From UHGV virus genome UHGV-2004451: DNA of 11,886 nt; one strand, written 5' to 3'. A program made the position numbers and the translations under genes. Below the pieces are notes generated by a model. It saw only the letters and a list, made by a program, of their open reading frames with translations, was not told the DNA's origin and ran no database searches. Below are positions 1,266 to 11,886 of the stretch, piece by piece. The stretch's first letter is position 1. The number at the start of each line of letters is the position of its first letter. This DNA comes from a virus.

Positions 1266-2225
1266 ATGGAACCGAATACTATCCATACCTGCGACGCTCT
1301 GACCGGTCTTCGGCTGCTTCCCGACGAGTCGGTGGACTGCATCGTCACTTCGCCTCCGTACTGGCAGATGCGCGACTACGGCATCGGCTCGATCGTATGG
1401 CCGGACGGTTGGTCGGGACAGTTGGGGTTGGAACCTACGCGCGAGGAGTTCATCGCGCATCTGTGCATGATCTTCGACGAGTGCCGCCGCGTACTGAAAC
1501 CCTCCGGCACGCTGTGGGTGAACTTGGGCGATTCGTATAGCAAACCATACAAATACAACCGCCGACAAGATCCCAAGTGGAGCGAGAATTCGAAGAACAG
1601 CGATTGCCTTATAGACATCAAGGTCGATACGGTGCGTCACCGTATTCCATCCAAGTCGCTCTGCAATATTCCGAACAAGTTCGCTGACGAAATGATCCTG
1701 CGCGGCTGGGTGCTGCGCAACGAGATCATTTGGTACAAGCCCGCCTGTATGCCCGCCTCCGTGCGGGATCGTTTTACGGTGGACTTCGAGAAGATGTTCT
1801 TCTTTACCAAGTCGCAGCGATACTATTTCGAGCAGCAGTTCGAACCGTATGCCGCTTCATCTTTCGACCGCTATAAAAATCCGGTAACGCTCAACGGCAA
1901 AAGCGAAAAGTATCGCTGCATCAGCGGAAAACCTCACGGACGCCTCGAGATAAATCCTCGCGGTCGCAATATGCGGTGCGTGTGGCGTATCCCTTATGAA
2001 CCGAGCCACGAGGCGCACTATGCCATGTATCCTTCGCGATTGGTCGAGACGCCGATCGAAGCCGGATGTCCCGAAGGGGGACTCGTTCTCGATCCCTTTA
2101 TGGGCAGCGGAACGACGGCAGTCGTCGCCCGACGATTAGGACGCCATTACATCGGCTTCGAACCCAATCCGGAGTATGTCGCAATTTGCGAGAAGAGACT
2201 CGAACAGCAAACCCTCTCCCTTTGA
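1266..2225 (+). CDS. Beta-class N4/N6 DNA methyltransferase (N6_N4_Mtase-type); the SPPY catalytic motif favours N4-cytosine or N6-adenine specificity
   Basis: ATG start 10 nt after the stop of the upstream methyltransferase. Catalytic motif IV SPPY (CIVTSPPYW) is N-terminal and AdoMet motif I (VLDPFMGSGTTAVVARRLGRHYIGFE) is C-terminal, which is the beta-class order. A lower-G+C central segment (about 1540-1700) sits where a target-recognition region is expected. Confidence 0.9.
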   Translation: MEPNTIHTCDALTGLRLLPDESVDCIVTSPPYWQMRDYGIGSIVWPDGWSGQLGLEPTREEFIAHLCMIFDECRRVLKPSGTLWVNLGDSYSKPYKYNRRQDPKWSENSKNSDCLIDIKVDTVRHRIPSKSLCNIPNKFADEMILRGWVLRNEIIWYKPACMPASVRDRFTVDFEKMFFFTKSQRYYFEQQFEPYAASSFDRYKNPVTLNGKSEKYRCISGKPHGRLEINPRGRNMRCVWRIPYEPSHEAHYAMYPSRLVETPIEAGCPEGGLVLDPFMGSGTTAVVARRLGRHYIGFEPNPEYVAICEKRLEQQTLSL

Positions 2226-2226
2226 T

Positions 2227-3003
2227 ATGTCTTCGCATACTTACGACAATCCCGCCTATATCGCTTCGTGCTCGTTCGGCAAGGATTCGATCGCTACGAT
2301 CCTCCTTGCCCTCGAGCACGGCGAGCCGCTCGATGCCGCCGTCTTCTCGGAGGTGATGTTCGACCACTGGCGCAATATCAGCGGCGAGATACCCGAACAC
2401 ATCGAGTGGATCTACTCGACGGCTATTCCGCGTCTTGCAGCCTTGGGCGTACGGGTCGATGTCGTCCGTTCGGAGAAAGACTATCTTACGTTATTCCATA
2501 CGGTCATAGGGAGCGGTACGCATAAGGGTATGCTGCGCGGCTGGCTCATCGGCGGCAAGTGCTGCGCCAACCGCGACCTCAAAATCCGGCCCATACATCA
2601 TTATTACGGTCGTTTCCGCAAGCAGGGCGTCGTGCAGTACGTCGGCATCGCGGCCGACGAACCGAGACGCCTCGCGCGGATGCAGGACAAAGGGTATATC
2701 CGTAAAACAAGTCTGCTCGCCAAGTACGGGTACACCGAGGCGGATGCCCGACGCAAGTGCGAAGAATACGGTCTGCTGTCGCCTCTCTACCGAACCTCGC
2801 ATCGGGGCGGTTGCTGGTTCTGCCCCAACTGCCGCATACCGGTCTTCGCCGAACTGCGCCGCCGACATCCCGAACTGTGGCGCGAACTGCAACGGCTTTC
2901 GAAGGTCGGAAATAAGTCATCCGAAGGCTTCAAATACGGGCAGACTTTCGAGGAGATCGAGCGGAGGATGGATCTCTTCGAACACGCGCCGACGCTATTC
3001 TAA
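2227..3003 (+). CDS. PAPS-reductase / DndC-like PP-loop ATP pyrophosphatase family protein (putative nucleotide or DNA modification enzyme)
   Basis: N-terminal PP-loop-like motif SCSFGKDS (SxGxDS type) and a C-terminal cysteine cluster CWFCPNC. The ATG at 2227 lies 1 nt after the TGA of the upstream methyltransferase (TGAtATG), implying translational coupling. An in-frame ATG at 2176 would overlap the upstream gene by 50 nt and is considered less likely. Confidence 0.7.
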   Translation: MSSHTYDNPAYIASCSFGKDSIATILLALEHGEPLDAAVFSEVMFDHWRNISGEIPEHIEWIYSTAIPRLAALGVRVDVVRSEKDYLTLFHTVIGSGTHKGMLRGWLIGGKCCANRDLKIRPIHHYYGRFRKQGVVQYVGIAADEPRRLARMQDKGYIRKTSLLAKYGYTEADARRKCEEYGLLSPLYRTSHRGGCWFCPNCRIPVFAELRRRHPELWRELQRLSKVGNKSSEGFKYGQTFEEIERRMDLFEHAPTLF

Positions 3004-3007
3004 ATAA

Positions 3008-3090
3008 CTGAAAATAAATATGATAATAGTTGCCGGATAACTTGCGTGTTCCGAATAACGATGTTATGTTTGCAGTACGATAAACAACTG
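3008..3090 (+). promoter_or_regulatory. Promoter repeat copy 1 (Bacteroidota-type -33 TTG / -7 TATGTTTG)
   Basis: An ~82-bp AT-rich element about 95% identical to copy 4. TTG at 3042-3044, a 20-nt spacer, and TATGTTTG at 3065-3072 match the TTTG-N19-21-TAnnTTTG consensus of Bacteroidota primary promoters. The leader contains GATAAACAACTG. It lies directly upstream of gene 3118..3540. Confidence 0.6.
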
Positions 3091-3117
3091 AATAATAAAC
3101 GATTAAAACACCCGAAC

Positions 3118-3540
3118 ATGACAAGTGCACAGGCAAAACAGATCGCATCGAACTATATGCGGCAGCAGAGCGATTACGTATTTTCGGCGGTAACGGTTAA
3201 AAGCCTCGCTCCGGCGAACGGACCAGTTAAGGTGTGGCTCACCACCGAAGACGACTACGGGGACGAACTGATCGTCGAGGTCGAGATGGACCCGCAGTCG
3301 AATGAGATCCGCTGGAAGAAGATCTGCAACACGGGACGCCTATCCGAATATCTGAAGCCGGCTACTCGGATCGATAAACTTTCGGCAGGACAACGCTTCC
3401 GGCTGCAAGGCGACTGCGTGGTTTACGAGTTCGTGGACAATGTAAAGGACCGCAGCAGTATTCCCTATATCATCCGACGGGCGGACCGGTCCGGTTGCGT
3501 ATCGAGAGTCGGATGGCAGGAAGTTTTTCCTATCGAGTAA
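3118..3540 (+). CDS. Hypothetical small protein (141 aa), first gene behind promoter repeat copy 1
   Basis: The ORF track gives 3046..3540, but its GTG start lies inside the promoter repeat (-7 box at 3065-3072). The first ATG downstream of the predicted transcription start is 3118. Balanced amino-acid composition; stop TAA at 3538-3540 is followed by a hairpin at 3550-3576. No recognisable motif. Confidence 0.6.
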   Translation: MTSAQAKQIASNYMRQQSDYVFSAVTVKSLAPANGPVKVWLTTEDDYGDELIVEVEMDPQSNEIRWKKICNTGRLSEYLKPATRIDKLSAGQRFRLQGDCVVYEFVDNVKDRSSIPYIIRRADRSGCVSRVGWQEVFPIE

Positions 3541-3549
3541 CCGATAACC

Positions 3550-3576
3550 GCGCACCTTGCCGAAAGGCAGGTGCGC
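3550..3576 (+). terminator. Stem-loop downstream of gene 3118..3540 (possible terminator or RNA processing site)
   Basis: GCGCACCTTGCC-GAAA-GGCAGGTGCGC: an 11-bp GC-rich stem with one bulged base and a GAAA tetraloop. No U-tract follows, so intrinsic-terminator function is uncertain. Confidence 0.4.
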
Positions 3577-3589
3577 ATAAAACGATACG

Positions 3590-3808
3590 ATGATGAAACT
3601 CCGCCGAACAAAAACCGGAACTTACACGATTGCGGGTATTACCGCAACTCAATATCGCGCCCTTGCGGCTGTGCTTACTACCGCCGATGGGCGTTGCTTC
3701 GACGAGCAGGACGGGGACGGCAACTATTACAGCAACGACGATTTCGTCTGCTCGCTCGATGGCGATGAACGCGAGGCATTGCGACAGGTGTGCGACGCGC
3801 TTCGATAA
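3590..3808 (+). CDS. Hypothetical small acidic protein (72 aa)
   Basis: ATG at 3590, 14 nt after the 3550-3576 hairpin. The C-terminal half is Asp/Glu-rich (DEQDGDGNYYSNDDFVCSLDGDERE). The competing frame 3571..3768 is Arg-rich and looks like a shadow ORF. Stop TAA at 3806-3808 lies just before promoter repeat copy 2. Confidence 0.45.
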   Translation: MMKLRRTKTGTYTIAGITATQYRALAAVLTTADGRCFDEQDGDGNYYSNDDFVCSLDGDEREALRQVCDALR

Positions 3809-3819
3809 CGTGTAAGATA

Positions 3820-3901
3820 TTGAAAATAAATGCGATAATAATTGCAGAAAGACTTGCGTGTCCCGAATTATGATGCCATCTTTGCAGCGTGATAAACAAC
3901 T
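3820..3901 (+). promoter_or_regulatory. Promoter repeat copy 2 (degenerate -7 box CATCTTTG)
   Basis: Same element with several substitutions. TTG at 3854-3856, 20-nt spacer, CATCTTTG at 3877-3884, then GATAAACAACT at 3891-3901. Directly upstream of gene 3917..4249. Confidence 0.5.
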
Positions 3902-3916
3902 AATATAGAGCGTATT

Positions 3917-4249
3917 ATGAGTACAAAAGCAAGAATCGGAGTAAGACTTCCCGACGGAAAAATCAAAAGCATCCATATATGGCGGGACGGACATCCCGAT
4001 ACGTTGGGCGAAATGTTGTCTGCGCACTACAATACATTGGAATCGGCAATGGCACTGGTCGAACGAGGCAACATAATCGATGTGGAGGCACGTCTCGAAG
4101 AGTGCCGGTTCGAGAAATCGAATGAACGGTGCGAAACCGAGCCTCGGATTTATAAAACGGTCGCCGCCTACGAACGAGAAATCGAGGAGGATATATGTTA
4201 CAAATATCTCTATCGGGACGGCAAGTGGGAATACCGGGCGGTCGATTAG
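3917..4249 (+). CDS. Hypothetical small protein (110 aa), behind promoter repeat copy 2
   Basis: ATG at 3917, about 25 nt downstream of the predicted transcription start of promoter copy 2. Protein-like composition with a Glu-rich C-terminus. Followed by a structured 3' region containing hairpins at 4285-4302 and 4337-4367. Confidence 0.65.
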   Translation: MSTKARIGVRLPDGKIKSIHIWRDGHPDTLGEMLSAHYNTLESAMALVERGNIIDVEARLEECRFEKSNERCETEPRIYKTVAAYEREIEEDICYKYLYRDGKWEYRAVD

Positions 4250-4284
4250 TAACCGACTTCCGATCGTAAGGAGCGAATGCTCCG

Positions 4285-4304
4285 AGCCTCCGACGGGAGG
4301 CTTT
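4285..4304 (+). terminator. Hairpin plus short T-run in the 3' region of gene 3917..4249
   Basis: AGCCTCC-GACG-GGAGGCT (perfect 7-bp stem) followed by TT. It is preceded by a second small hairpin GGAGC-GAAT-GCTCC at 4270-4283. Confidence 0.35.
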
Positions 4305-4316
4305 CCCTCGTTTCGT

Positions 4317-4397
4317 CCATTCAGTTGTTTATTGCGACCGGAGCCGTGCATCGTGTACGGCTCCGGTTTTCGTTCGAAGGCGGGACATTGTTTCTGC
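4317..4397 (+). repeat. Conserved structured 3' element, copy A
   Basis: CCATTCAGTTGTTTATTGCG, then the CCGGAGCCG/CGGCTCCGG hairpin with a loop containing CATCNTGT, then GGGACATTGTTTCTGC. Shares flank, stem core, loop motif and downstream motif with copy B. Confidence 0.6.
4337..4370 (+). terminator. Intrinsic-terminator-like hairpin (core of conserved 3' element copy A)
   Basis: ACCGGAGCCGT-GCATCGTGT-ACGGCTCCGGT: a perfect 11-bp stem followed by TTTT. Confidence 0.55.
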
Positions 4398-4469
4398 AAC
4401 GGATCTTCGGCAGCATGTATATTTACCATATGGGATATGCTTGATAAATAGTTGATATTCTTTGAATTA

Positions 4470-4533
4470 AGTTGTCGATAAACTTGCGCGTCCCGAATAA
4501 TGATGTTATGTTTGCAGTGCAACAAACAATTGA
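4470..4533 (+). promoter_or_regulatory. Promoter repeat copy 3 (core only; upstream part divergent)
   Basis: TTG at 4484-4486, 20-nt spacer, TATGTTTG at 4507-4514, with the conserved core CTTGCGCGTCCCGAATAATGATGTTATGTTTGCAGTGC. The leader motif is altered to CAACAAACAATTG. Upstream of gene 4560..4778. Confidence 0.55.
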
Positions 4534-4559
4534 ACTACAATCTATTAAACGACTCGATC

Positions 4560-4778
4560 ATGAATACTGCGAATCGAAAAAGAACGGAGATCGACGCCGA
4601 ACTCGACCGGTTGGAGGTCGAATTCGAAAAGAACCGTAAGGAGATGCAAGGCCTTGCCGACGAGAACAGACGTGCCGGCAACCGCTACGGCGAATTATCG
4701 AATGCGAATCACGACATCAACAACCGGATCCTCACATTGCTCGCTGAGCGTTGGGAATCGGAAGAGACGGCTGATTGA
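4560..4778 (+). CDS. Hypothetical small coiled-coil protein (72 aa), behind promoter repeat copy 3
   Basis: The ORF track gives 4500..4778, but that start lies inside promoter copy 3 (-7 box at 4507-4514). The first ATG in the leader is 4560. The sequence is charged with heptad-like spacing (EIDAELDRLEVEFEKNRKEMQGLADENRR). Stop TGA at 4776-4778 is followed by a GC-rich hairpin. Confidence 0.55.
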   Translation: MNTANRKRTEIDAELDRLEVEFEKNRKEMQGLADENRRAGNRYGELSNANHDINNRILTLLAERWESEETAD

Positions 4779-4791
4779 CGAAACGAGAGAC

Positions 4792-4824
4792 GACCCCGCC
4801 GAGAAACCGTCTTCGGGGCGGGGT
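4792..4824 (+). terminator. GC-rich hairpin downstream of gene 4560..4778
   Basis: ACCCCGCC...GGCGGGGT: an 8-bp G+C stem with a 16-nt loop that can partly pair (GAA/TTC), followed by TT. It begins 14 nt after the stop codon. Confidence 0.45.
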
Positions 4825-4855
4825 TAAGACCCGAAACAGGAGAACACATAAAGAG

Positions 4856-5053
4856 ATGAAAACGATGAATGCAAATGCAACGGTAGGCGACAAGATTCGC
4901 ATTATCCATCTTCGCGACGAGGACAGCCGTTACGACGGCAAGGAGGGTACGATCGAGTTCATCGACTCGCTCGGACAACTGCACGGCACGTGGGGTGGCT
5001 TGGCAGTCATTCCCGAAGTCGATCGGTTCGTAATTATCGAGAAACCGGAATAA
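4856..5053 (+). CDS. Hypothetical small protein (66 aa), beta-rich, reminiscent of small DUF-type domains common in phages and mobile elements
   Basis: The ORF track gives 4775..5053, starting at a TTG that overlaps the upstream hairpin. The first ATG after the hairpin is 4856. The motif GDKIRIIHLRDEDSRYDGKEGTIEFIDSLGQLHGTWGGLAVIPEVDRFVI looks like a small SH3/KOW-like beta domain. That assignment comes from memory only and is not verified. Confidence 0.5.
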   Translation: MKTMNANATVGDKIRIIHLRDEDSRYDGKEGTIEFIDSLGQLHGTWGGLAVIPEVDRFVIIEKPE

Positions 5054-5074
5054 TCGCCGGCAACGATAATGCTC

Positions 5075-5096
5075 GGTTCCGCCATCTTTTCGGAAC
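5075..5096 (+). terminator. Weak hairpin downstream of gene 4856..5053
   Basis: GGTTCCG-CCATCTTTT-CGGAAC: a 6-bp stem with a U-rich loop, lying between the stop codon and promoter repeat copy 4. Confidence 0.3.
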
Positions 5097-5106
5097 ACCT
5101 AATTTA

Positions 5107-5188
5107 CTGAAAATAAATACGATAATAGTCGCCGAACAACTTGCGTGTTCCGAATAACGATGTTATGTTTGCAGTACGATAAACAACT
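5107..5188 (+). promoter_or_regulatory. Promoter repeat copy 4 (near-identical to copy 1)
   Basis: TTG at 5141-5143, 20-nt spacer, TATGTTTG at 5164-5171, leader GATAAACAACT at 5178-5188. About 4 mismatches to copy 1 over 82 bp. Directly upstream of gene 5204..5491. Confidence 0.6.
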
Positions 5189-5203
5189 AAAAAAGAGCGA
5201 ATT

Positions 5204-5491
5204 ATGAGAACGAACATCGAACGGTTTTTAGAGAGATTCCCGAAGAATGCCACGAATTGGGCGCAGGCGACGGACGAGGTGCGCGACATGGCTCGCAAGG
5301 CTCGCGAATTGTTGGAAGAGTACGAAGGCGTCATCGTCGAACCGGTAAATTTCCGGGCTATCGAGACCCCGGCCGAGTGGAATACCGAAGGTCGCGAGTT
5401 CATCCTGACGAATTTCGATCGCATGGCGGATAGGACCAAAGAGCGCTTCTACGACTACTTCCGCGAGTGGTTCGAAGGCGAAGAGGAATAG
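5204..5491 (+). CDS. Hypothetical small protein (95 aa) with acidic C-terminus, behind promoter repeat copy 4
   Basis: ATG at 5204, about 25 nt downstream of the predicted transcription start of promoter copy 4. C-terminus is FREWFEGEEE. Stop TAG at 5489-5491 is followed by a perfect 14-bp hairpin at 5500-5536. Confidence 0.65.
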   Translation: MRTNIERFLERFPKNATNWAQATDEVRDMARKARELLEEYEGVIVEPVNFRAIETPAEWNTEGREFILTNFDRMADRTKERFYDYFREWFEGEEE

Positions 5492-5499
5492 ACCGACGC

Positions 5500-5536
5500 A
5501 CGGATGCTCCCCGCAGCTCGAACGGGGAGCATCCGT
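5500..5536 (+). terminator. Strong hairpin downstream of gene 5204..5491
   Basis: ACGGATGCTCCCCG-CAGCTCGAA-CGGGGAGCATCCGT: a perfect 14-bp stem beginning 9 nt after the stop codon. No U-tract follows. Confidence 0.5.
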
Positions 5537-5594
5537 CCTAACCCCGGAGTAGGGTTGCACACGTCGTCTCTTTCGATAGGAAATCTATCGTGCT

Positions 5595-5672
5595 CCATCA
5601 GTTGTTTATTGCAGCCGGAGCCGCATCATGTGCGGCTCCGGCAATCTCATTATAGAGGGACTTTGTTTCAGC
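5595..5672 (+). repeat. Conserved structured 3' element, copy B
   Basis: CCATCAGTTGTTTATTGCA, then the same hairpin core, then GGGACTTTGTTTCAGC. About 85% identical to copy A with a structure-preserving substitution in the stem. Confidence 0.6.
5614..5642 (+). terminator. Hairpin (core of conserved 3' element copy B)
   Basis: GCCGGAGCCGCA-TCATG-TGCGGCTCCGGC: a perfect 12-bp stem. Homologous to the 4337-4367 hairpin, with a compensatory T-A to C-G change at the loop-proximal pair. Confidence 0.5.
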
Positions 5673-5716
5673 GATGAGGCCTTTTGCCATTTTACCTTTA
5701 TTCCCGCGACAAAGGT

Positions 5717-8581
5717 ATGGCGATTTTCGGTCTAAAATATTACGCTGAACTTCGCTCGAAGTACAAGGGCGTTTTGTGGCGCGTGGAGATTTCGGAGCGG
5801 GGGTACGCAGGTCCGTCGGAGGAGATGGCCTTCGACGGCGGTACGCCGTTGCAGATTACGTGGGAGAAACGGGGCGACGAGTTCTACGTGCCGGTCAAGG
5901 CTTCGGAGGCGACCATCAATATCCTCTGCAAGGAGAATTTCCATTACCTGGCTCTGTTCACCTCCGATCCCCGTTATTTTCGCGTCTCGATTTTCCGCAA
6001 TCGGCAGCTCTATTGGCGGGGCTACGTCACCTCCGACCTCTACTCCGAGAACTTCACCGCTCCGCCCTATACCGTTACGATCAAGGCCGTGGACGGCTTC
6101 AACCTCTTGTCGAGCATTCCGTTCCGCGACCTCGTACATATCGGCATCGCGGGCAGGCGGTCGCTATGGGAACTGCTCTCCTCCTGCATCGACTTGTTGG
6201 AGTTGGATCTCGATACGGCGGACTGGATGGATCTGTATGTCGAGGGCATGGACGAGAACGCCTCTTCGCTCCGTCAAACCTATATCGACCTCGAACGGCT
6301 CTACTACGTCTACGAGGAGCCTACCTATCGCGACATCCTCGAACTGTGCCTGCGTCCGTTCGCCGGACAGATCTTCCAGTCGAACGGTGCCCTGCATATC
6401 CGCCGCGCCGTATCGCTCTACCGAACTGCCCGTCCCGTGAATTTCTATCGCGTCGGCACGGAGCATCCCGTCGGGCGGATCGTTACGGGCAGCGGACTGC
6501 GGCTCGTGATCCATACCGGTGCGCAGGTCGTCACATCGGCTGCACGCGAGCGCATCGACGGCATGTGGACGGGCGACCTGCACATCGAGGGAAGTTCGAC
6601 GCTCGACATCGTCCCTGCGCTGCGCAAGGTCTCGGTCGATGTAAAGAACAAGAGCCTCGACAACCTGATCGCCCGCATCGGGTTCTACGATCCCGACGCT
6701 TGGACGGATCCGCACGGCTTCGTCTCCGTGAAGAGCGGAGAGGAACTCTATTTCAGCGGCGAGGATGCCTATCGGGGTGCGGAAGTCGTAACTCGGGGCT
6801 TTCCCGTCGAGCAGTGCAACTTCCCGCTCGTATGGGAGTTCGGGTTGCAGACCTACCATCGGGAGTGGGGACTGGGCATTTACCGCCCGAACGAAAGCGT
6901 CGATGTCGCGGTGCATTACGGCGTCCGCATCGTCGGCGAAAAGGCGACATACAGCCTCGCCGAGAGCGGTTCGTGGGTGCAGTCCTCCGACGGGGAGATC
7001 GCGAGTACGGTCAAGACCGGCAACGAGCAGAACATGAAGATCGAGATCGACGGCATCCCCTGCGACGGCGAGTGGCGGTTCTTCGTCCGGCAGACGCTCA
7101 TCGGCAAGATCACGACCTATACCGACCGCTTCGGCAATCCGAGCGGCCGCACTTCGGGCTATATGGAGAGCGCCGCGTTCCGCAAGATGACGCTCTCGAT
7201 CGATGCGGGCGACAGCTACGACAAGGGTTTGCGCTACGAGTCGCTCGTCGATCCCGCGAACAATGTCGATATGTCCGTAACGCTTCCCGTGAGCGATATT
7301 CCCGCCATTCCGAACGACCGGCTGCTCTATGCGCTCTACTACCTCGATGCCGCCGGCAATCCCACGCGCATCTGGCATACGAAAGGTCGGAACGACTACG
7401 ACACGCTGGTCGGTCATATCGTGCAGGGAGCATTGCGGTACAAGCAGCTGCCGAGCCGGCGCATCACGGGCGAGATCTTCACGGGGCAGCATATCGATAT
7501 GAATACGGTGGTTCGGGACGACAAGTTCCTGAACGCCGCCTATTACCTGAACTCCATCGAACTGAATGCCCTCGACGACTCCTACAACAGCGAACTCACG
7601 GAGATGCCGCGCCTGCTCGCAACGGAGAGACCGCCGGAGGGCGACGACTGCATAGCGGTCGCGACGCTCTCCTTCACGGTCGGCAAGGCGATCCGCTGCC
7701 TGAACCGTCTGCTGCTCCAGTCCGTCGATAAAAAGACGGTCTATGCCTTCGACACCGCCACGCGGCAGGTACGGGAGATCTACCGCAGCACGGCATCCTT
7801 CGAGATGTACGAGGCGGACGAGGGTTTCGTCGCGGTGGACGGGAAAGGGGTCCGCTACCTCGACTATCGCGGTACGGTCGAACGGATATATACCCCGCCG
7901 GAGGAGTACCGCAACGTCGCGACCTACATGGACGGATATATCCATATCCTGAAATCCTACCGGCAATATATCGGTCCGCGGGGCGGCGATGCCGGCGGAC
8001 GCAGCGCCCGCACGGCAGAGGACGAGGATCCGAACTATCGCACCTATCGTTACCTCTCGCGCCCGGAGTGCAAGTACATTTCGCCCGATGCCTCGACCGG
8101 ATATCGCGGACGGGGATATGCCTACGAGGGTACGCCGATGTCGGGTGCGATCCTCGCCCTGCGGCGTACGGAAAATACGATCGTCGTGAATACCTCGCAT
8201 GGCGCCTATCTGCACGACAAGCGGTTCCACCAGCCCTGTAAGATGCTGCAATTCGCTGCGGGCGAGCAGATCGTCACCGTCTCCGACAACTATATCGGCA
8301 TCAACGCCGACGATATGCTGTGGTTCTATCGGCGGGATTCGATTACCGAGCGGACGCTGCTCCGGCGGTTGGGACGCTGGGCGGATCACGCCGACCATAC
8401 GATGAGCGAGGTCGTACACTCCTACGACGACGGCATCTTCATCCGGAACTTCCGCGACGACACGACGACCGACGTTCGGAACGCCGCCGGCTGGGGCGAG
8501 AACATCATGGGGCTGTTTTTCATCTGCGGCGACCTCTATATCGTGCGCGAACGGGCGATTTACAAATACATTCCTGAATAA
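5717..8581 (+). CDS. Large hypothetical protein (954 aa from the first ATG; 965 aa if the TTG at 5684 is used); possibly a virion or tail-associated structural protein
   Basis: This is the only one of three overlapping long ORFs with protein-like composition (aromatic-rich, balanced). The overlapping 5776..7731(+) frame is Arg/Gly-rich and 6164..8854(-) is Ser/Arg-rich, both typical shadow ORFs of GC-rich coding DNA. No Walker A or other catalytic motif was seen. The gene lies in the same + strand block as the tape measure gene. The function call is inference only. Confidence 0.75.
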   Translation: MAIFGLKYYAELRSKYKGVLWRVEISERGYAGPSEEMAFDGGTPLQITWEKRGDEFYVPVKASEATINILCKENFHYLALFTSDPRYFRVSIFRNRQLYWRGYVTSDLYSENFTAPPYTVTIKAVDGFNLLSSIPFRDLVHIGIAGRRSLWELLSSCIDLLELDLDTADWMDLYVEGMDENASSLRQTYIDLERLYYVYEEPTYRDILELCLRPFAGQIFQSNGALHIRRAVSLYRTARPVNFYRVGTEHPVGRIVTGSGLRLVIHTGAQVVTSAARERIDGMWTGDLHIEGSSTLDIVPALRKVSVDVKNKSLDNLIARIGFYDPDAWTDPHGFVSVKSGEELYFSGEDAYRGAEVVTRGFPVEQCNFPLVWEFGLQTYHREWGLGIYRPNESVDVAVHYGVRIVGEKATYSLAESGSWVQSSDGEIASTVKTGNEQNMKIEIDGIPCDGEWRFFVRQTLIGKITTYTDRFGNPSGRTSGYMESAAFRKMTLSIDAGDSYDKGLRYESLVDPANNVDMSVTLPVSDIPAIPNDRLLYALYYLDAAGNPTRIWHTKGRNDYDTLVGHIVQGALRYKQLPSRRITGEIFTGQHIDMNTVVRDDKFLNAAYYLNSIELNALDDSYNSELTEMPRLLATERPPEGDDCIAVATLSFTVGKAIRCLNRLLLQSVDKKTVYAFDTATRQVREIYRSTASFEMYEADEGFVAVDGKGVRYLDYRGTVERIYTPPEEYRNVATYMDGYIHILKSYRQYIGPRGGDAGGRSARTAEDEDPNYRTYRYLSRPECKYISPDASTGYRGRGYAYEGTPMSGAILALRRTENTIVVNTSHGAYLHDKRFHQPCKMLQFAAGEQIVTVSDNYIGINADDMLWFYRRDSITERTLLRRLGRWADHADHTMSEVVHSYDDGIFIRNFRDDTTTDVRNAAGWGENIMGLFFICGDLYIVRERAIYKYIPE

Positions 8582-9528: not shown

Positions 9529-11886
9529 ATGTCCCGGAGAATCGCCGATTTACTTATAAAGATCGGAGCCGACTCGTATGAGTTCCAACAGAAGGCGCAA
9601 CAGGTCGAGAAAGGACTCGGCTCGCTCGAAAAGAAGCTGACCTCCGTCGGCAAGTCGCTCTCGCTGAAGCTCACCGCACCCCTTGCTGCATTGGGCGGCG
9701 TGTCGCTGCACCTGGCCGATGTGCAGGCCAAAGCCGAGGCGAAGGTGCAGCAGGCGCTCAAGGTTACGAATCAGGCCGTCGGTTACAACTTCCGGCAGTT
9801 GGCCGACTACGCTTCGGAGTTGCAGGGCAAGACACTCTTCGGCGACGAGACGATCCTCGACAAATCCACCGCCCGCCTGTTGGCTTTTACTAACATCACG
9901 GGCGAGAACTTCAAGCGTACGCAGGCGTTGGCATTGGACCTCGCCACGGCGTTGGAGATGGATTTGGGTTCGGCGTCGTTGCAGTTGGGCAAGGCGCTCT
10001 CCGATCCCGCGACGAAGCTCTCGTCGCTGTCGCGTGCCGGTATCGCCTTTTCCAAGGAGCAGACGGAGGTAATCAAGAAGCTCGCCGAGACGGGCGACAT
10101 AGCCAAAGCGCAGGCGATGATCCTCGACGAGTTGGAGCGCAAGTTCGGCGGGCAGGCCGAAGCCGCCGCACGGACGGGACTCGGCACCGTGCAGCAGCTC
10201 AAGAATGCGTGGGGCGACTTCCTCGAACGGATCGGTGCGGCCATCATGCCTTTCGCGACGAAGATAGCGGGTGCGCTCTCGACGGTCGTGCAGATGCTGC
10301 AATCGATGTCGCCGGCGATGATGCAGACGATCGTCGTCGTGGCGGGGCTGGTGGCTGCGATCGGTCCCCTTTCGCTCGGAATCGGCGCCGTGATCAAGGT
10401 GCTGCCGATGCTGGCGGCGGGATTTACGGCTCTGTTGTCGCCCGTCGGATTGATTATGGCGGCGGTCCTCGCGCTCGGTGCGGCATTCGCCTACGCCCGC
10501 CTCCAGAAGCAGAAGATGATCGACGAGATGGCCGAAACCGAATCGCTCGACGAGCTCGAACGCAAGTTGCAGGAGAATATCGCCGAGCAGAAAGAGATCA
10601 TCGCCACGACGACCAAGACGCGGATGGTTCCGAATTTCGGTGGATTGGTCGCCGGATTTATCTTGCAGAAAGTCCCCGACGAATCGAAACTCGCACCCCT
10701 GCGCAAGGAGTACGATCTGCTGACGGCAGCGATCGAAAAGAAACGCGAAACGGAGAAGAAGGCGGCCGAGGCGCAGGCCGAACTGGACAAGGTAACGGAC
10801 GAGGCTCGCAAGCAAACCGAGGAGTTGATGAAGTCCATCGCCGGAACCAACGCGCAGACGGAGCAGAGCACGGGCATCATCGGTAAATTGCAGGCGCGGA
10901 TCGAGGCCCTCGAAAAGAAGAAACTGCTGCCCGAATCGACCGTCGAGGATATCGCTGCGGCGAATGCCGAGATCGGGAAGCTACAAAAAGAGCTGGAGCG
11001 GATCCGAAATATCAAGCCCGAAGACCTGAAGCCCGTCGTCAAGATGGACGGTATTCTGCCCGCGGGCTTCGAGTTGGAACTGCCGGCTCCGAAACTCAAA
11101 ATGGGCGATCTGAAACCCGTAACATCGCAATATGCGCAGCAGATGCAGGCGATATTCGGTGCGGTGCGCGAAGGGCTTTACGGCTGGGCGGACGACAACA
11201 GCGCATACTTGCAAAATAACCTCGCCGATACGGTCTCGATGGTCGAGAACTACACGACAGCGCTGACGGCGAAGGGCTGGTCGTTCTCGGCGGCATTGGA
11301 GCATGTCCACGCCACGATTGCGGAGGTGATGACACGCTTCGATCAGCAGGTGTCGAAGTTTATGGCCGACAGCATCGTCGCTGCGGCGGAGGCTATCGGG
11401 CAGATCATCGCCGGCGATTTGGGATTCGGAGGGCTGATGAAAGCGATTCTGACGCAGTTCGCCAATTTTCTGAAAAATATCGGCTCGCAGCTCATCGAGT
11501 TCGGCGTGATGATCATCGCCTTCAAATCGGCGTTGAGATCCGTCCTCGCTAACCCGTGGGCGGCGATCGCCATCGGTGCAGCAATGGTCGCGGCAGCAGC
11601 CGTGATGACGGCGCTCATCAACAAGAATGCGCAGGAGAGCGTGCCGGCATTGGCCAACGGCGGTCTGGTATACGGTCCTACCTATGCGATGGTCGGCGAC
11701 AATCCCAATGCCGGTACGGATCCCGAAGTCATCGCTCCGCTGTCGAAGTTGCAGGCGATGCTCCCGACAGGCGGCAGCGCGCAGAACCTACGAATAACCC
11801 TCGGCGGTCAATTGACTGCCAAGGGTCGGGATTTGGTGTATGTTCTCGGAAAAGAGAACTTCAAGTCAGAGGTGCTGGGTGGGTGA
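9529..11886 (+). CDS. Phage tail tape measure protein (785 aa)
   Basis: The N-terminal region matches the conserved tape measure core signature as I recall it (LGKALSDPATKLSSLSRAGIAFSKEQTEVIKKLAETGDIAKAQAMILDELERKFGGQAEAA). It is followed by long Gly/Ala-rich hydrophobic segments (IMPFATKIAGALSTVV...GLVAAIGPLSLGIGAV and AIAIGAAMVAAAAVMTALI) and an extended Glu/Lys-rich coiled-coil region. Stop TGA at 11884-11886 coincides with the window end. Minus-strand and off-frame ORFs inside it are GC-shadow artefacts. Confidence 0.85.
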   Translation: MSRRIADLLIKIGADSYEFQQKAQQVEKGLGSLEKKLTSVGKSLSLKLTAPLAALGGVSLHLADVQAKAEAKVQQALKVTNQAVGYNFRQLADYASELQGKTLFGDETILDKSTARLLAFTNITGENFKRTQALALDLATALEMDLGSASLQLGKALSDPATKLSSLSRAGIAFSKEQTEVIKKLAETGDIAKAQAMILDELERKFGGQAEAAARTGLGTVQQLKNAWGDFLERIGAAIMPFATKIAGALSTVVQMLQSMSPAMMQTIVVVAGLVAAIGPLSLGIGAVIKVLPMLAAGFTALLSPVGLIMAAVLALGAAFAYARLQKQKMIDEMAETESLDELERKLQENIAEQKEIIATTTKTRMVPNFGGLVAGFILQKVPDESKLAPLRKEYDLLTAAIEKKRETEKKAAEAQAELDKVTDEARKQTEELMKSIAGTNAQTEQSTGIIGKLQARIEALEKKKLLPESTVEDIAAANAEIGKLQKELERIRNIKPEDLKPVVKMDGILPAGFELELPAPKLKMGDLKPVTSQYAQQMQAIFGAVREGLYGWADDNSAYLQNNLADTVSMVENYTTALTAKGWSFSAALEHVHATIAEVMTRFDQQVSKFMADSIVAAAEAIGQIIAGDLGFGGLMKAILTQFANFLKNIGSQLIEFGVMIIAFKSALRSVLANPWAAIAIGAAMVAAAAVMTALINKNAQESVPALANGGLVYGPTYAMVGDNPNAGTDPEVIAPLSKLQAMLPTGGSAQNLRITLGGQLTAKGRDLVYVLGKENFKSEVLGG

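Follow-up and report, generated by a model that had tools for sequence, protein, structure and literature searches.

We analysed an 11,886-nt stretch of the UHGV virus genome UHGV-2004451 (hereafter the window), in which a run of six small genes is interspersed with four copies of a promoter-like repeat. The copies, at about 3001-3117, 3813-3916, 4445-4559 and 5100-5203, all lie on the + strand and are each about 100 bp long, comprising a putative promoter and a leader; we refer to them as cassettes and to the genes that they precede as cargo (Table 1). A repeat search of the window returned a four-copy family in register with starts at 3028, 3840, 4470 and 5127 and a three-copy family extending further 5′ with starts at 3001, 3813 and 5100, and a MAFFT alignment of the four gave a mean column identity of 76 % with an invariant core, ACTTGCG.GT.CCGAAT.A.GATG..AT.TTTGCAG. 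These results bear out the four copies recognised in a preliminary description made from the sequence alone, which had read them as promoters of the Bacteroidota primary sigma factor. The 15-mer TTGCGYGTYCCGAAT has 4 exact occurrences in the window, on the + strand only, and TANNTTTGCAG is matched at 3065, 3877 (1 mismatch), 4507 and 5164. Over 3008-3089, 4 positions distinguish copy 1 from copy 4, in agreement with that description, and copy 3, as its given coordinates had implied, has only the core and leader in common with the others and not the AT-rich upstream half. The G+C content is 0.38-0.42 at each copy versus 0.55-0.62 in the surroundings. Two minus-strand open reading frames (ORFs; 2930..3148 and 5104..5439), cited earlier as independent confirmation of the repeat, both contain VVYRTANITSLFGTRKL and are artefacts, since the reading frame crosses the repeat. 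The check for further copies that had been proposed was run as a profile search of the whole window and returned these four alone, even at E ≤ 10.

Table 1 Features of the cassette array in the window
Feature	Position	Strand	Description
Cassette copy 1	3001..3117	+	AT-rich upstream block 3001-3030, in which TAA 3001-3003 terminates the PAPS-reductase-like gene; TTG 3042-3044; conserved spacer 3045-3064; −7 box TATGTTTG 3065-3072; predicted +1 A3077; leader 41 nt; ATG 3118
Copy 1 cargo gene	3118..3540	+	140 amino acids; no family match
Hairpin between unit 1 genes	3550..3576	+	−22 kcal/mol, z = −5.7; without a following U-tract
Unit 1 second gene	3590..3808	+	72 amino acids; no family match; without its own cassette; preceded by hairpin 3550-3576
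Cassette copy 2	3813..3916	+	AT-rich block 3813-3842; TTG 3854-3856; −7 box CATCTTTG 3877-3884; predicted +1 G3889; leader 28 nt; ATG 3917
Copy 2 cargo gene	3917..4249	+	110 amino acids; phrog_1987, function unknown
End-of-unit module T1	4317..4371	+	inverted leader copy CCATTCAGTTGTTTATTGC 4317-4335, then hairpin
Hairpin of module T1	4336..4368	+	15-bp stem running into U-tract
Cassette copy 3	4445..4559	+	differing upstream block; TTG 4484-4486; −7 box TATGTTTG 4507-4514; predicted +1 G4519; leader 41 nt; ATG 4560
Copy 3 cargo gene	4560..4778	+	72 amino acids; coiled coil suggested by sequence; no family match
Hairpin between unit 3 genes	4792..4825	+	strong; without U-tract
Unit 3 second gene	4856..5053	+	65 amino acids; DUF4314; preceded by hairpin 4792-4825
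Cassette copy 4	5100..5203	+	AT-rich block 5100-5129; TTG 5141-5143; −7 box TATGTTTG 5164-5171; predicted +1 A5176; leader 28 nt; ATG 5204
Copy 4 cargo gene	5204..5491	+	95 amino acids; no family match
Hairpin directly 3′ of 95-amino-acid gene	5500..5536	+	−28.6 kcal/mol, z = −5.4
End-of-unit module T2	5595..5642	+	inverted leader copy CCATCAGTTGTTTATTGCA 5595-5613, then hairpin 5614-5642

In 4/4 window copies a TTG is separated by 20 nt from a −7 box, TATGTTTG or in copy 2 CATCTTTG, and the last G of the box lies 45, 32, 45 and 32 nt (copies 1-4) from the ATG of a small gene, both as had been described. We determined conservation over 42 non-redundant copies anchored on the TTG, using the numbering of Flavobacterium johnsoniae promoters, which puts the final G of the −7 box at −5. 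The arrangement TTG-N20-[TC]AnnTTT[GA] retains its 20-nt spacing in all but one of ~90 copies. All 42 copies carry T-35, T-34, G-33, A-11, T-8, T-7, T-6 and T-1, with G-5 present in 39/42, a purine at +1 throughout (A in 23/42, G in 19/42) and C at +2 in 38/42. Invariant or near-invariant columns run without a break through A-37, C-36, T-35, T-34, G-33, C-32, G-31, T-30, G-29, T-28, T-27, C-26 and C-25, recur within the spacer at A-23 and A-22 and at G-17, A-16, T-15 and G-14, take in A-11, T-10, T-8, T-7, T-6 and G-5 of the box and end with T-1, the purine at +1, C+2 and ATAAA at +4 to +8. The columns at −24, −20 to −18, −13, −12 and −9 are variable, and almost no information is found beyond about −75 to +20. 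The spacer, CGTGTTCC.AAT...GATG, is G+C-rich and as conserved as both boxes. Conservation beyond the two boxes, on which the preliminary description had insisted, is thus present in spacer and leader columns, although it is strongest in the inter-box spacer and not in the upstream AT-rich half. A three-frame stop module in the AT-rich 5′ part occurred in 23/42 copies versus 46 % of shuffles and is not enriched. The TG at −15/−14, one base 5′ of the box, has by analogy the geometry of the extended −10 motif of Escherichia coli.

The consensus of the primary sigma factor of Bacteroidota, sigma-ABfr, is TTTG near −33 and TAnnTTTG near −7 (PMC7366714), and F. johnsoniae promoters have near-invariant T-12, A-11, T-8, T-7, T-6 and G-5, with a gap of 4-5 nt from the box to the start (PMC6847099). 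The −7 element TAnnTTTG is exact in window copies 1, 3 and 4 and matched at 7/8 positions in copy 2, and the pyrimidine-purine step exactly 4 nt past the box reproduces the F. johnsoniae geometry (PMC6847099). The conserved T-1/R+1 at this distance supports initiation independently of how the copies were found, and the geometry predicts the four starts given in Table 1. All of the applicable computational tests, namely host phylum, spacing, T-1/R+1, orientation and distance to the ATG, came out in favour of the Bacteroidota primary-sigma reading, from which we infer promoter activity.

To follow the family beyond the window we used nhmmer profiles built on the window copies, which recovered ~90 cassette copies in the first 36 loci and 83 distinct cassette sequences in loci fetched via proteins rather than via the repeat. 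Each phage carries 1-7 copies. Across seven 20-kb loci centred on the PAPS-reductase-like gene and a 36.6-kb near-complete relative (a contig reassembled from two loci) the copies stand on the coding strand in one array directly 3′ of the DNA-modification genes, with none elsewhere. The suggestion that they co-regulate a temporal class genome-wide has therefore to be narrowed to a local array of accessory genes. We found no repeat arrays 3′ of distant PAPS-reductase homologues in other phage clades. Cassettes precede at least 10 unrelated small-protein families, none with known function, and when the window's six cargo genes were followed across relatives the gene was on the strand of the nearest cassette in 306/306 occurrences. 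The largest array seen, with seven cassettes in 4.2 kb (L015 5047-9276; IMGVR_UViG_3300023486_000225), follows a 266-amino-acid Dam-like methylase homologue, whose N-terminus is near-identical to the D12 methylase of the window, and a 438-amino-acid ORF; its cargo includes a DUF4259-like protein (just under the Pfam threshold) and a DUF4314 homologue, and a 361-amino-acid gene comes after the array.

A scan of bacterial genomes, with one genome per species, placed the profile-verified copies almost only in Alistipes assemblies (15 loci, on contigs of up to 282 kb). The others were in Cryptobacteroides, one Bacteroidaceae metagenome-assembled genome and one 1.3-kb contig binned as Clostridiales, and the remaining 50-odd pattern matches in bacterial genomes are isolated chance matches. 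The 36.6-kb relative encodes TerS/TerL, a portal, an S78 prohead protease, a tail-tube protein and a tyrosine integrase adjoining host DNA; from this gene set and the integrase beside host DNA it is a temperate HK97-like siphophage of Alistipes, a genus of Bacteroidota, and so is the phage of the window.

We compared breakpoints by aligning window 2001-6200 to relatives with blastn, which revealed a role of the repeats in recombination that the preliminary description had missed and that adds a mobile-cassette aspect to them. In locus L090 the window segment 3001-3092 aligns twice, at 10826-10917 and 11303-11394, and the two copies flank an extra 477-bp unit consisting of a cassette and a gene of 81-101 amino acids. 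The same locus has a deletion of 582 bp (window 3900-4481) that joins 3899 to 4482 and removes the 110-amino-acid gene together with its terminators. The crossover falls within 48 bp that copies 2 and 3 share, and the alignment displays the resulting hybrid, with the flank and CATCTTTG of copy 2 followed by the leader and gene of copy 3. The 110-amino-acid gene is also missing from L092 and L147, and in L094 and L101 the order of cargo is 110, 95 and 72 amino acids versus 110, 72 and 95 in the window. Since the crossover points vary by event, at the 5′ edge in one and at −5 to +12 in another, the exchange appears to be homologous and not site-specific.

The explanation that we consider best, and likely to be correct, is that these repeats are host-polymerase promoter-leader cassettes that double as recombination seams. 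On this view the RNA polymerase of Alistipes, associated with the primary sigma factor, would transcribe from each of them as from a portable expression cassette, which consists in order of an AT-rich upstream block, the −33 TTG, the 20-nt spacer, a −7 box (YATSTTTG) extended by TGn, a start 4 nt past the box and an A-rich leader of 28 or 41 nt, free of a Shine-Dalgarno sequence, that stops at the ATG of a small accessory gene. Because the repeated unit spans the promoter and the 5′ untranslated region (5′UTR) up to the start codon, it would form a complete expression unit that can be carried as a whole. The four cassettes of the window would each head a short transcription unit, monocistronic in two cases and bicistronic in the other two, in the interval from the DNA-modification genes to the tail genes. 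As direct repeats with 75-95 % identity they would be substrates for homologous recombination, giving deletion, insertion and reordering of units, and recombination among related phages would make the array a hyperplastic accessory-gene locus. What we observed directly is the sequence architecture and how well it is conserved, the phylum of the host, the confinement of the copies to a single array and the recombination breakpoints; from these we infer initiation itself, the polymerase and sigma factor used, the strength of the promoters and the timing of expression.

A number of observations weigh against this explanation. The −33 element of the window family is CTTG, a 3/4 match to TTTG. A scan for the upstream box by itself found it joined at a constant 20 nt to three −7 alleles, TATGTTTG (36 sites), CATCTTTG (22) and TAYCTTAG (15), each of which deviates from the host consensus where F. 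johnsoniae is near-invariant or disallows the base: the commonest has G at −9, virtually absent from F. johnsoniae promoters, the second has C at the near-invariant T-12 and the third changes T-6, near-invariant in Bacteroidota promoters, to A. The apparent conservation of the spacer is moreover inflated by ascertainment, as the loci were first found with spacer-derived patterns, although the result was no different in the protein-anchored loci. Host sigma-A recognition on its own is insufficient to explain all of the conservation. The joining of one box to three −7 alleles at constant spacing marks the upstream box as a separate and more constrained module, which is compatible with a bound factor, with Alistipes-specific sigma or alpha contacts or with homogenisation by recombination. 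Scans for other promoter types gave 8 E. coli-type sigma-70 sites versus 5.9 expected, which is not an enrichment and concerns a consensus irrelevant for an Alistipes host, and the bases required by sigma-54 (GG-N10-GC) and extracytoplasmic function (GGAAC...CGTC) sigma factors were absent by eye on either strand. The TAYCTTAG allele was seen in L094, L101, L156, L158, L159 and L262, where its distance to the ATG of an orthologous cargo gene is 42-46 nt.

Homogenisation is at the centre of an alternative that we hold possible, if clearly not the leading one, in which the repeats are ordinary host promoters and the remaining conservation is hitch-hiking among young duplicates that continually exchange sequence, whether by recombination or by gene conversion, inside one phage as well as from phage to phage, and in this way stay alike. 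Recombination of copies with one another can be seen directly, the −7 alleles, three in number and linked, resemble haplotypes rather than independent substitutions and the few differences between window copies 1 and 4 are as expected of such duplicates. However, columns that vary freely alternate with invariant ones over a length of 31 bp, the invariant set is shared between phages whose cargo and flanks have 65-75 % DNA identity or are unrelated, and the flanks just outside the cassette carry almost no information. The same alternation, in which spacer positions are conserved like the boxes yet are interspersed with truly variable columns (−24, −20 to −18, −13, −12 and −9), speaks for a factor-dependent promoter class, in which a box from about −38 to −14 (AACTTGCGTGTTCC.AAT...GATG) would be bound by a dedicated protein of phage or host origin. 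We regard such a factor as rather unlikely. It could be an activator overlapping the −33 region, comparable to the MotA box of T4 middle promoters, or a repressor, giving on/off control of the array with the −7 box as polymerase anchor only, and it would add to the cassette explanation rather than exclude it. In its favour, the upstream box stays constant beside the three −7 alleles with no change in the 20-nt spacing, loci with a G+C content anywhere from 0.40 to 0.60 retain the core and host promoters of Bacteroides thetaiotaomicron have AT-rich spacers of variable length. The box nevertheless has neither dyad nor direct-repeat symmetry (the only palindrome found in it, the 5-bp ATAAC-GAT-GTTAT, occurs in one allele and not in the others), box-only sites elsewhere in the 36.6-kb relative are not above chance, profile and pattern detection favours copies that retain the box and the TG at −15/−14 is explicable as an extended −10-like sigma contact. 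In the 36.6-kb contig, from which the early region is probably missing, we recognised no sigma factor, RNA polymerase, helix-turn-helix protein or other regulator. An inverted GTGTTCCGAA 5′ of copy 4 (5089-5098) was considered as a further element and rejected, as it is not kept in orthologous copies.

We consider it very improbable that the repeats serve an RNA polymerase or sigma factor encoded by the phage, as the 23-bp promoters of T7 type do. The long conserved core of ~35 bp is reminiscent of promoters of single-subunit phage polymerases, but a polymerase or sigma domain was not found in the 36.6-kb relative, the TTG-N20-TAnnTTTG arrangement is of host type with correct start geometry and the copies stand in one array and are not spread over middle and late genes. 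We likewise disfavour, as scarcely credible, their being remnants of mobile elements (a miniature inverted-repeat transposable element or an insertion sequence end) or attC-like sites and not promoters, a condition under which the preliminary description would have been given up. The repeats are intergenic and bound units that come and go among relatives, and a 17-nt inverted leader copy lies 3′ of two units, as such an origin might leave them. Against it, terminal inverted repeats and target duplications were not found around them, all copies are coding-strand at a fixed distance to the ATG, the variable crossover points fit homologous exchange and the sole recombinase seen is the prophage integrase, ~10 kb away. 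None of the 306 cargo-gene occurrences was inverted, which also led us to reject an invertible (phase-variable) segment of the Bacteroidales kind bounded by the leader and its inverted copy, with the limit that assemblies show the majority orientation only.

Within the cassette explanation the leader deserves separate consideration. It has no Shine-Dalgarno sequence and, counted from the ATG, carries an A at −3 and a run of A's from −10 to −15, and in Bacteroidetes A at −3 and A's in the −10 to −15 region are positive determinants of translation without Shine-Dalgarno pairing (PMC6847099). The distance from the box to the ATG is quantised in the family, at 32 or 43-45 nt, corresponding to a leader of 28 or ~41 nt. 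We found no match to Rfam at E ≤ 1 in window 2800-5800. An inverted copy of 17-19 nt of the leader (reverse complement GCAATAAACAACTGAAT) stands immediately 5′ of the two strongest terminator hairpins, those of modules T1 and T2, and the 10-mer AGTTGTTTAT has 5 occurrences in the window versus 0.26 expected. Members of the close clade retain this arrangement, and the phages of L010 and L015, which are more distant, lack it. Folding of the whole predicted copy 2 and copy 4 transcripts gave, in both the minimum free energy and the centroid structures, a 12-13-bp helix between the 5′ end of the mRNA and the inverted leader. No compensatory changes for this pairing were found, the variants in L006, L008 and L049 giving a mismatch or wobble, and because covariation was not found the 5′-3′ pairing of the mRNA stays a lead. 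A joint reading, in which a dedicated factor (an activator, a repressor or a protein that modifies sigma) that reads the −38 to −14 box switches the array as a phage-specific Bacteroidota promoter class and a 5′-3′ panhandle protects or regulates the Shine-Dalgarno-less transcripts, is in our estimate unlikely; in its panhandle part the first 12-17 nt of the mRNA would pair with their complement just before the terminator.

The strong hairpins all lie 3′ of genes and outside the repeat (those of Table 1 and a further one at 4284-4303). The two between the genes of the bicistronic units could be attenuators or elements of RNA processing or stability. Downstream of both terminator modules there is a similar short motif, GGGAC(A/T)TTGTTTC(T/A)GC, at 4380-4402 and 5654-5675; it gave no match in the cassette profile search, and its vague likeness to the cassette −7 region could reflect a decayed copy or some other signal.

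Compared with sigma-ABfr promoters (PMC7366714; PMC6847099), the window family has in common the TTG occupying −35 to −33, a box of 8 nt (−12 to −5) with TTTG as its last four bases, a 20-nt spacing within the 19-21 range, a purine start, here predicted, 4 nt past the box and a leadered mRNA without Shine-Dalgarno sequence and with A at −3 and around −12. It differs in that the host spacer is AT-rich and variable whereas that of the family is G+C-rich and near-invariant, in the −7 alleles, which deviate at −12, −9 or −6, in the added TG at −15/−14 and in the almost verbatim repetition of the whole unit including the leader.

The closest precedents for such repetition are evolutionary and architectural. 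In T4-type phages, PeSL (promoter early stem-loop) cassettes are repeated sigma-70-like early promoters whose AT-rich 5′ part holds the stop codon of the preceding gene and which end at the start codon of an ORFan, and they mediate modular shuffling in hyperplastic regions (PMC2839356; PMC4122927). The Alistipes phage repeats resemble them (Arbiol et al. 2010; Comeau et al. 2014) as repeated host-type promoters before ORFans clustered in a plastic region, in the upstream gene's stop codon within the AT-rich upstream region, in ending at the start codon and in the breakpoints of indels and replacements between close relatives that fall inside the repeats. The resemblance is however functional, and membership fails at the defining stem-loop, which is not in the Alistipes phage repeat: no hairpin was found within or directly before copies 1 and 2, and copy 4 is preceded by a weak, unconserved hairpin (z = −0.45). 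The Alistipes phage promoter is furthermore Bacteroidota-type and without Shine-Dalgarno sequence, and one array of 1-7 copies in a small temperate siphophage contrasts with ~50 copies in a 170-kb lytic myovirus. Morons are autonomous promoter-gene-terminator accessory units between conserved late genes of a temperate phage, reportedly described for lambdoid and HK97-like prophages by Juhala et al. 2000 and Hendrix et al. 2000. The copy 2 unit (3813-4371) and the copy 4 unit (5100-5642) are likewise promoter-gene-hairpin units and lie between tail-tube/modification genes and tail genes, but morons are usually single and mutually unrelated whereas the Alistipes family reuses one regulatory part for at least 10 cargo families.

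Repeated extended promoters are already known in phages of Bacteroidota. Bacteroides phage B124-14 (L267) has its own repeated promoter-leader units of the form TTG-N19-TATATTTG-CAGTG, on the minus strand at 37990, 24544 and 4215 and also at 2858, 6726 and 46815, with a conserved TGTTAAAA..TTAAA upstream part and a CAGTGTCAAAAGGAAACAAA leader. Both families have a conserved AT-rich upstream part, an A-rich leader ending at the ATG and the TTTGCAGTG junction. The B124-14 spacer and upstream part, however, have no sequence similarity to those of the Alistipes family, and its spacer is AT-rich and 19 nt long, with copies dispersed over a lytic genome and not in one array. The strong and widely used P_BfP1E6 promoter of Whitaker et al. 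2017 reportedly comes from a B. fragilis phage, the B124-14 phage group being its source. T4 middle promoters, with a MotA box at −30 and a host −10 element, share with the Alistipes family a conserved box, replacing or extending the upstream promoter element, plus a host-type downstream element. The likeness is an analogy only; the Alistipes box retains the host TTG, and MotA/AsiA-like proteins were not found.

We know of almost nothing on the transcription signals of Alistipes and its phages. Alistipes is new as host group, as are a family with an invariant G+C-rich spacer and three −7 alleles, the cassettes as seams of an accessory-gene array in small temperate siphophages and the complementarity of leader and terminator. 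The family provides a natural portable promoter-plus-leader part in ~90 variants, including the three −7 alleles, that reveals change-tolerant positions and could be useful for Bacteroidales expression tools, for which the B. fragilis phage promoter is a precedent. It extends the PeSL principle, by which regulatory repeats are the seams of ORFan shuffling, to small temperate phages of another phylum with another promoter grammar, and given this PeSL-like shuffling of ORFans the array is a good place to seek anti-defence or lysogenic-conversion genes of gut Alistipes phages. We would expect specialists to be surprised only if the spacer box or the mRNA panhandle proves functional; a factor bound to the box would make this the first dedicated phage promoter class described for Bacteroidota.

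The wider context of the array in the window comprises a D12-class Dam methylase (473-1255), an N6/N4 methylase (1266-2225) and the PAPS-reductase-like protein (2176-3003), followed 3′ of the latter by the six small genes, a 954-amino-acid virion protein, a small membrane protein and a tape-measure-like protein whose gene continues beyond the window end. Indications of function among the cargo proteins are limited to DUF4314 (4856-5053), phrog_1987 (3917-4249) and sub-threshold DUF matches. INPHARED holds no near-match for the whole window, and close relatives are present in IMG/VR, including IMGVR_UViG_3300039336_000213 with 98 % identity over window 2001-6200 and an identical PAPS-reductase-like protein. 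Counted from the first ATG, the PAPS-reductase-like ORF shares 50 nt (2176-2225) with the 3′ end of the N6/N4 methylase gene, and as relatives align only from about residue 20 its true start may be further downstream. A unit absent from the window is inserted in L187 9827-12172 (relative contig IMGVR_UViG_3300029052_000259), flanked by the prohead protease and the head-tail genes; in it two MjaI-family restriction-endonuclease-like ORFs of 192 and 206 amino acids adjoin an oppositely oriented ORF of 381 amino acids. This 381-amino-acid ORF may account for the N6_N4 methylase match among the scanned proteins.

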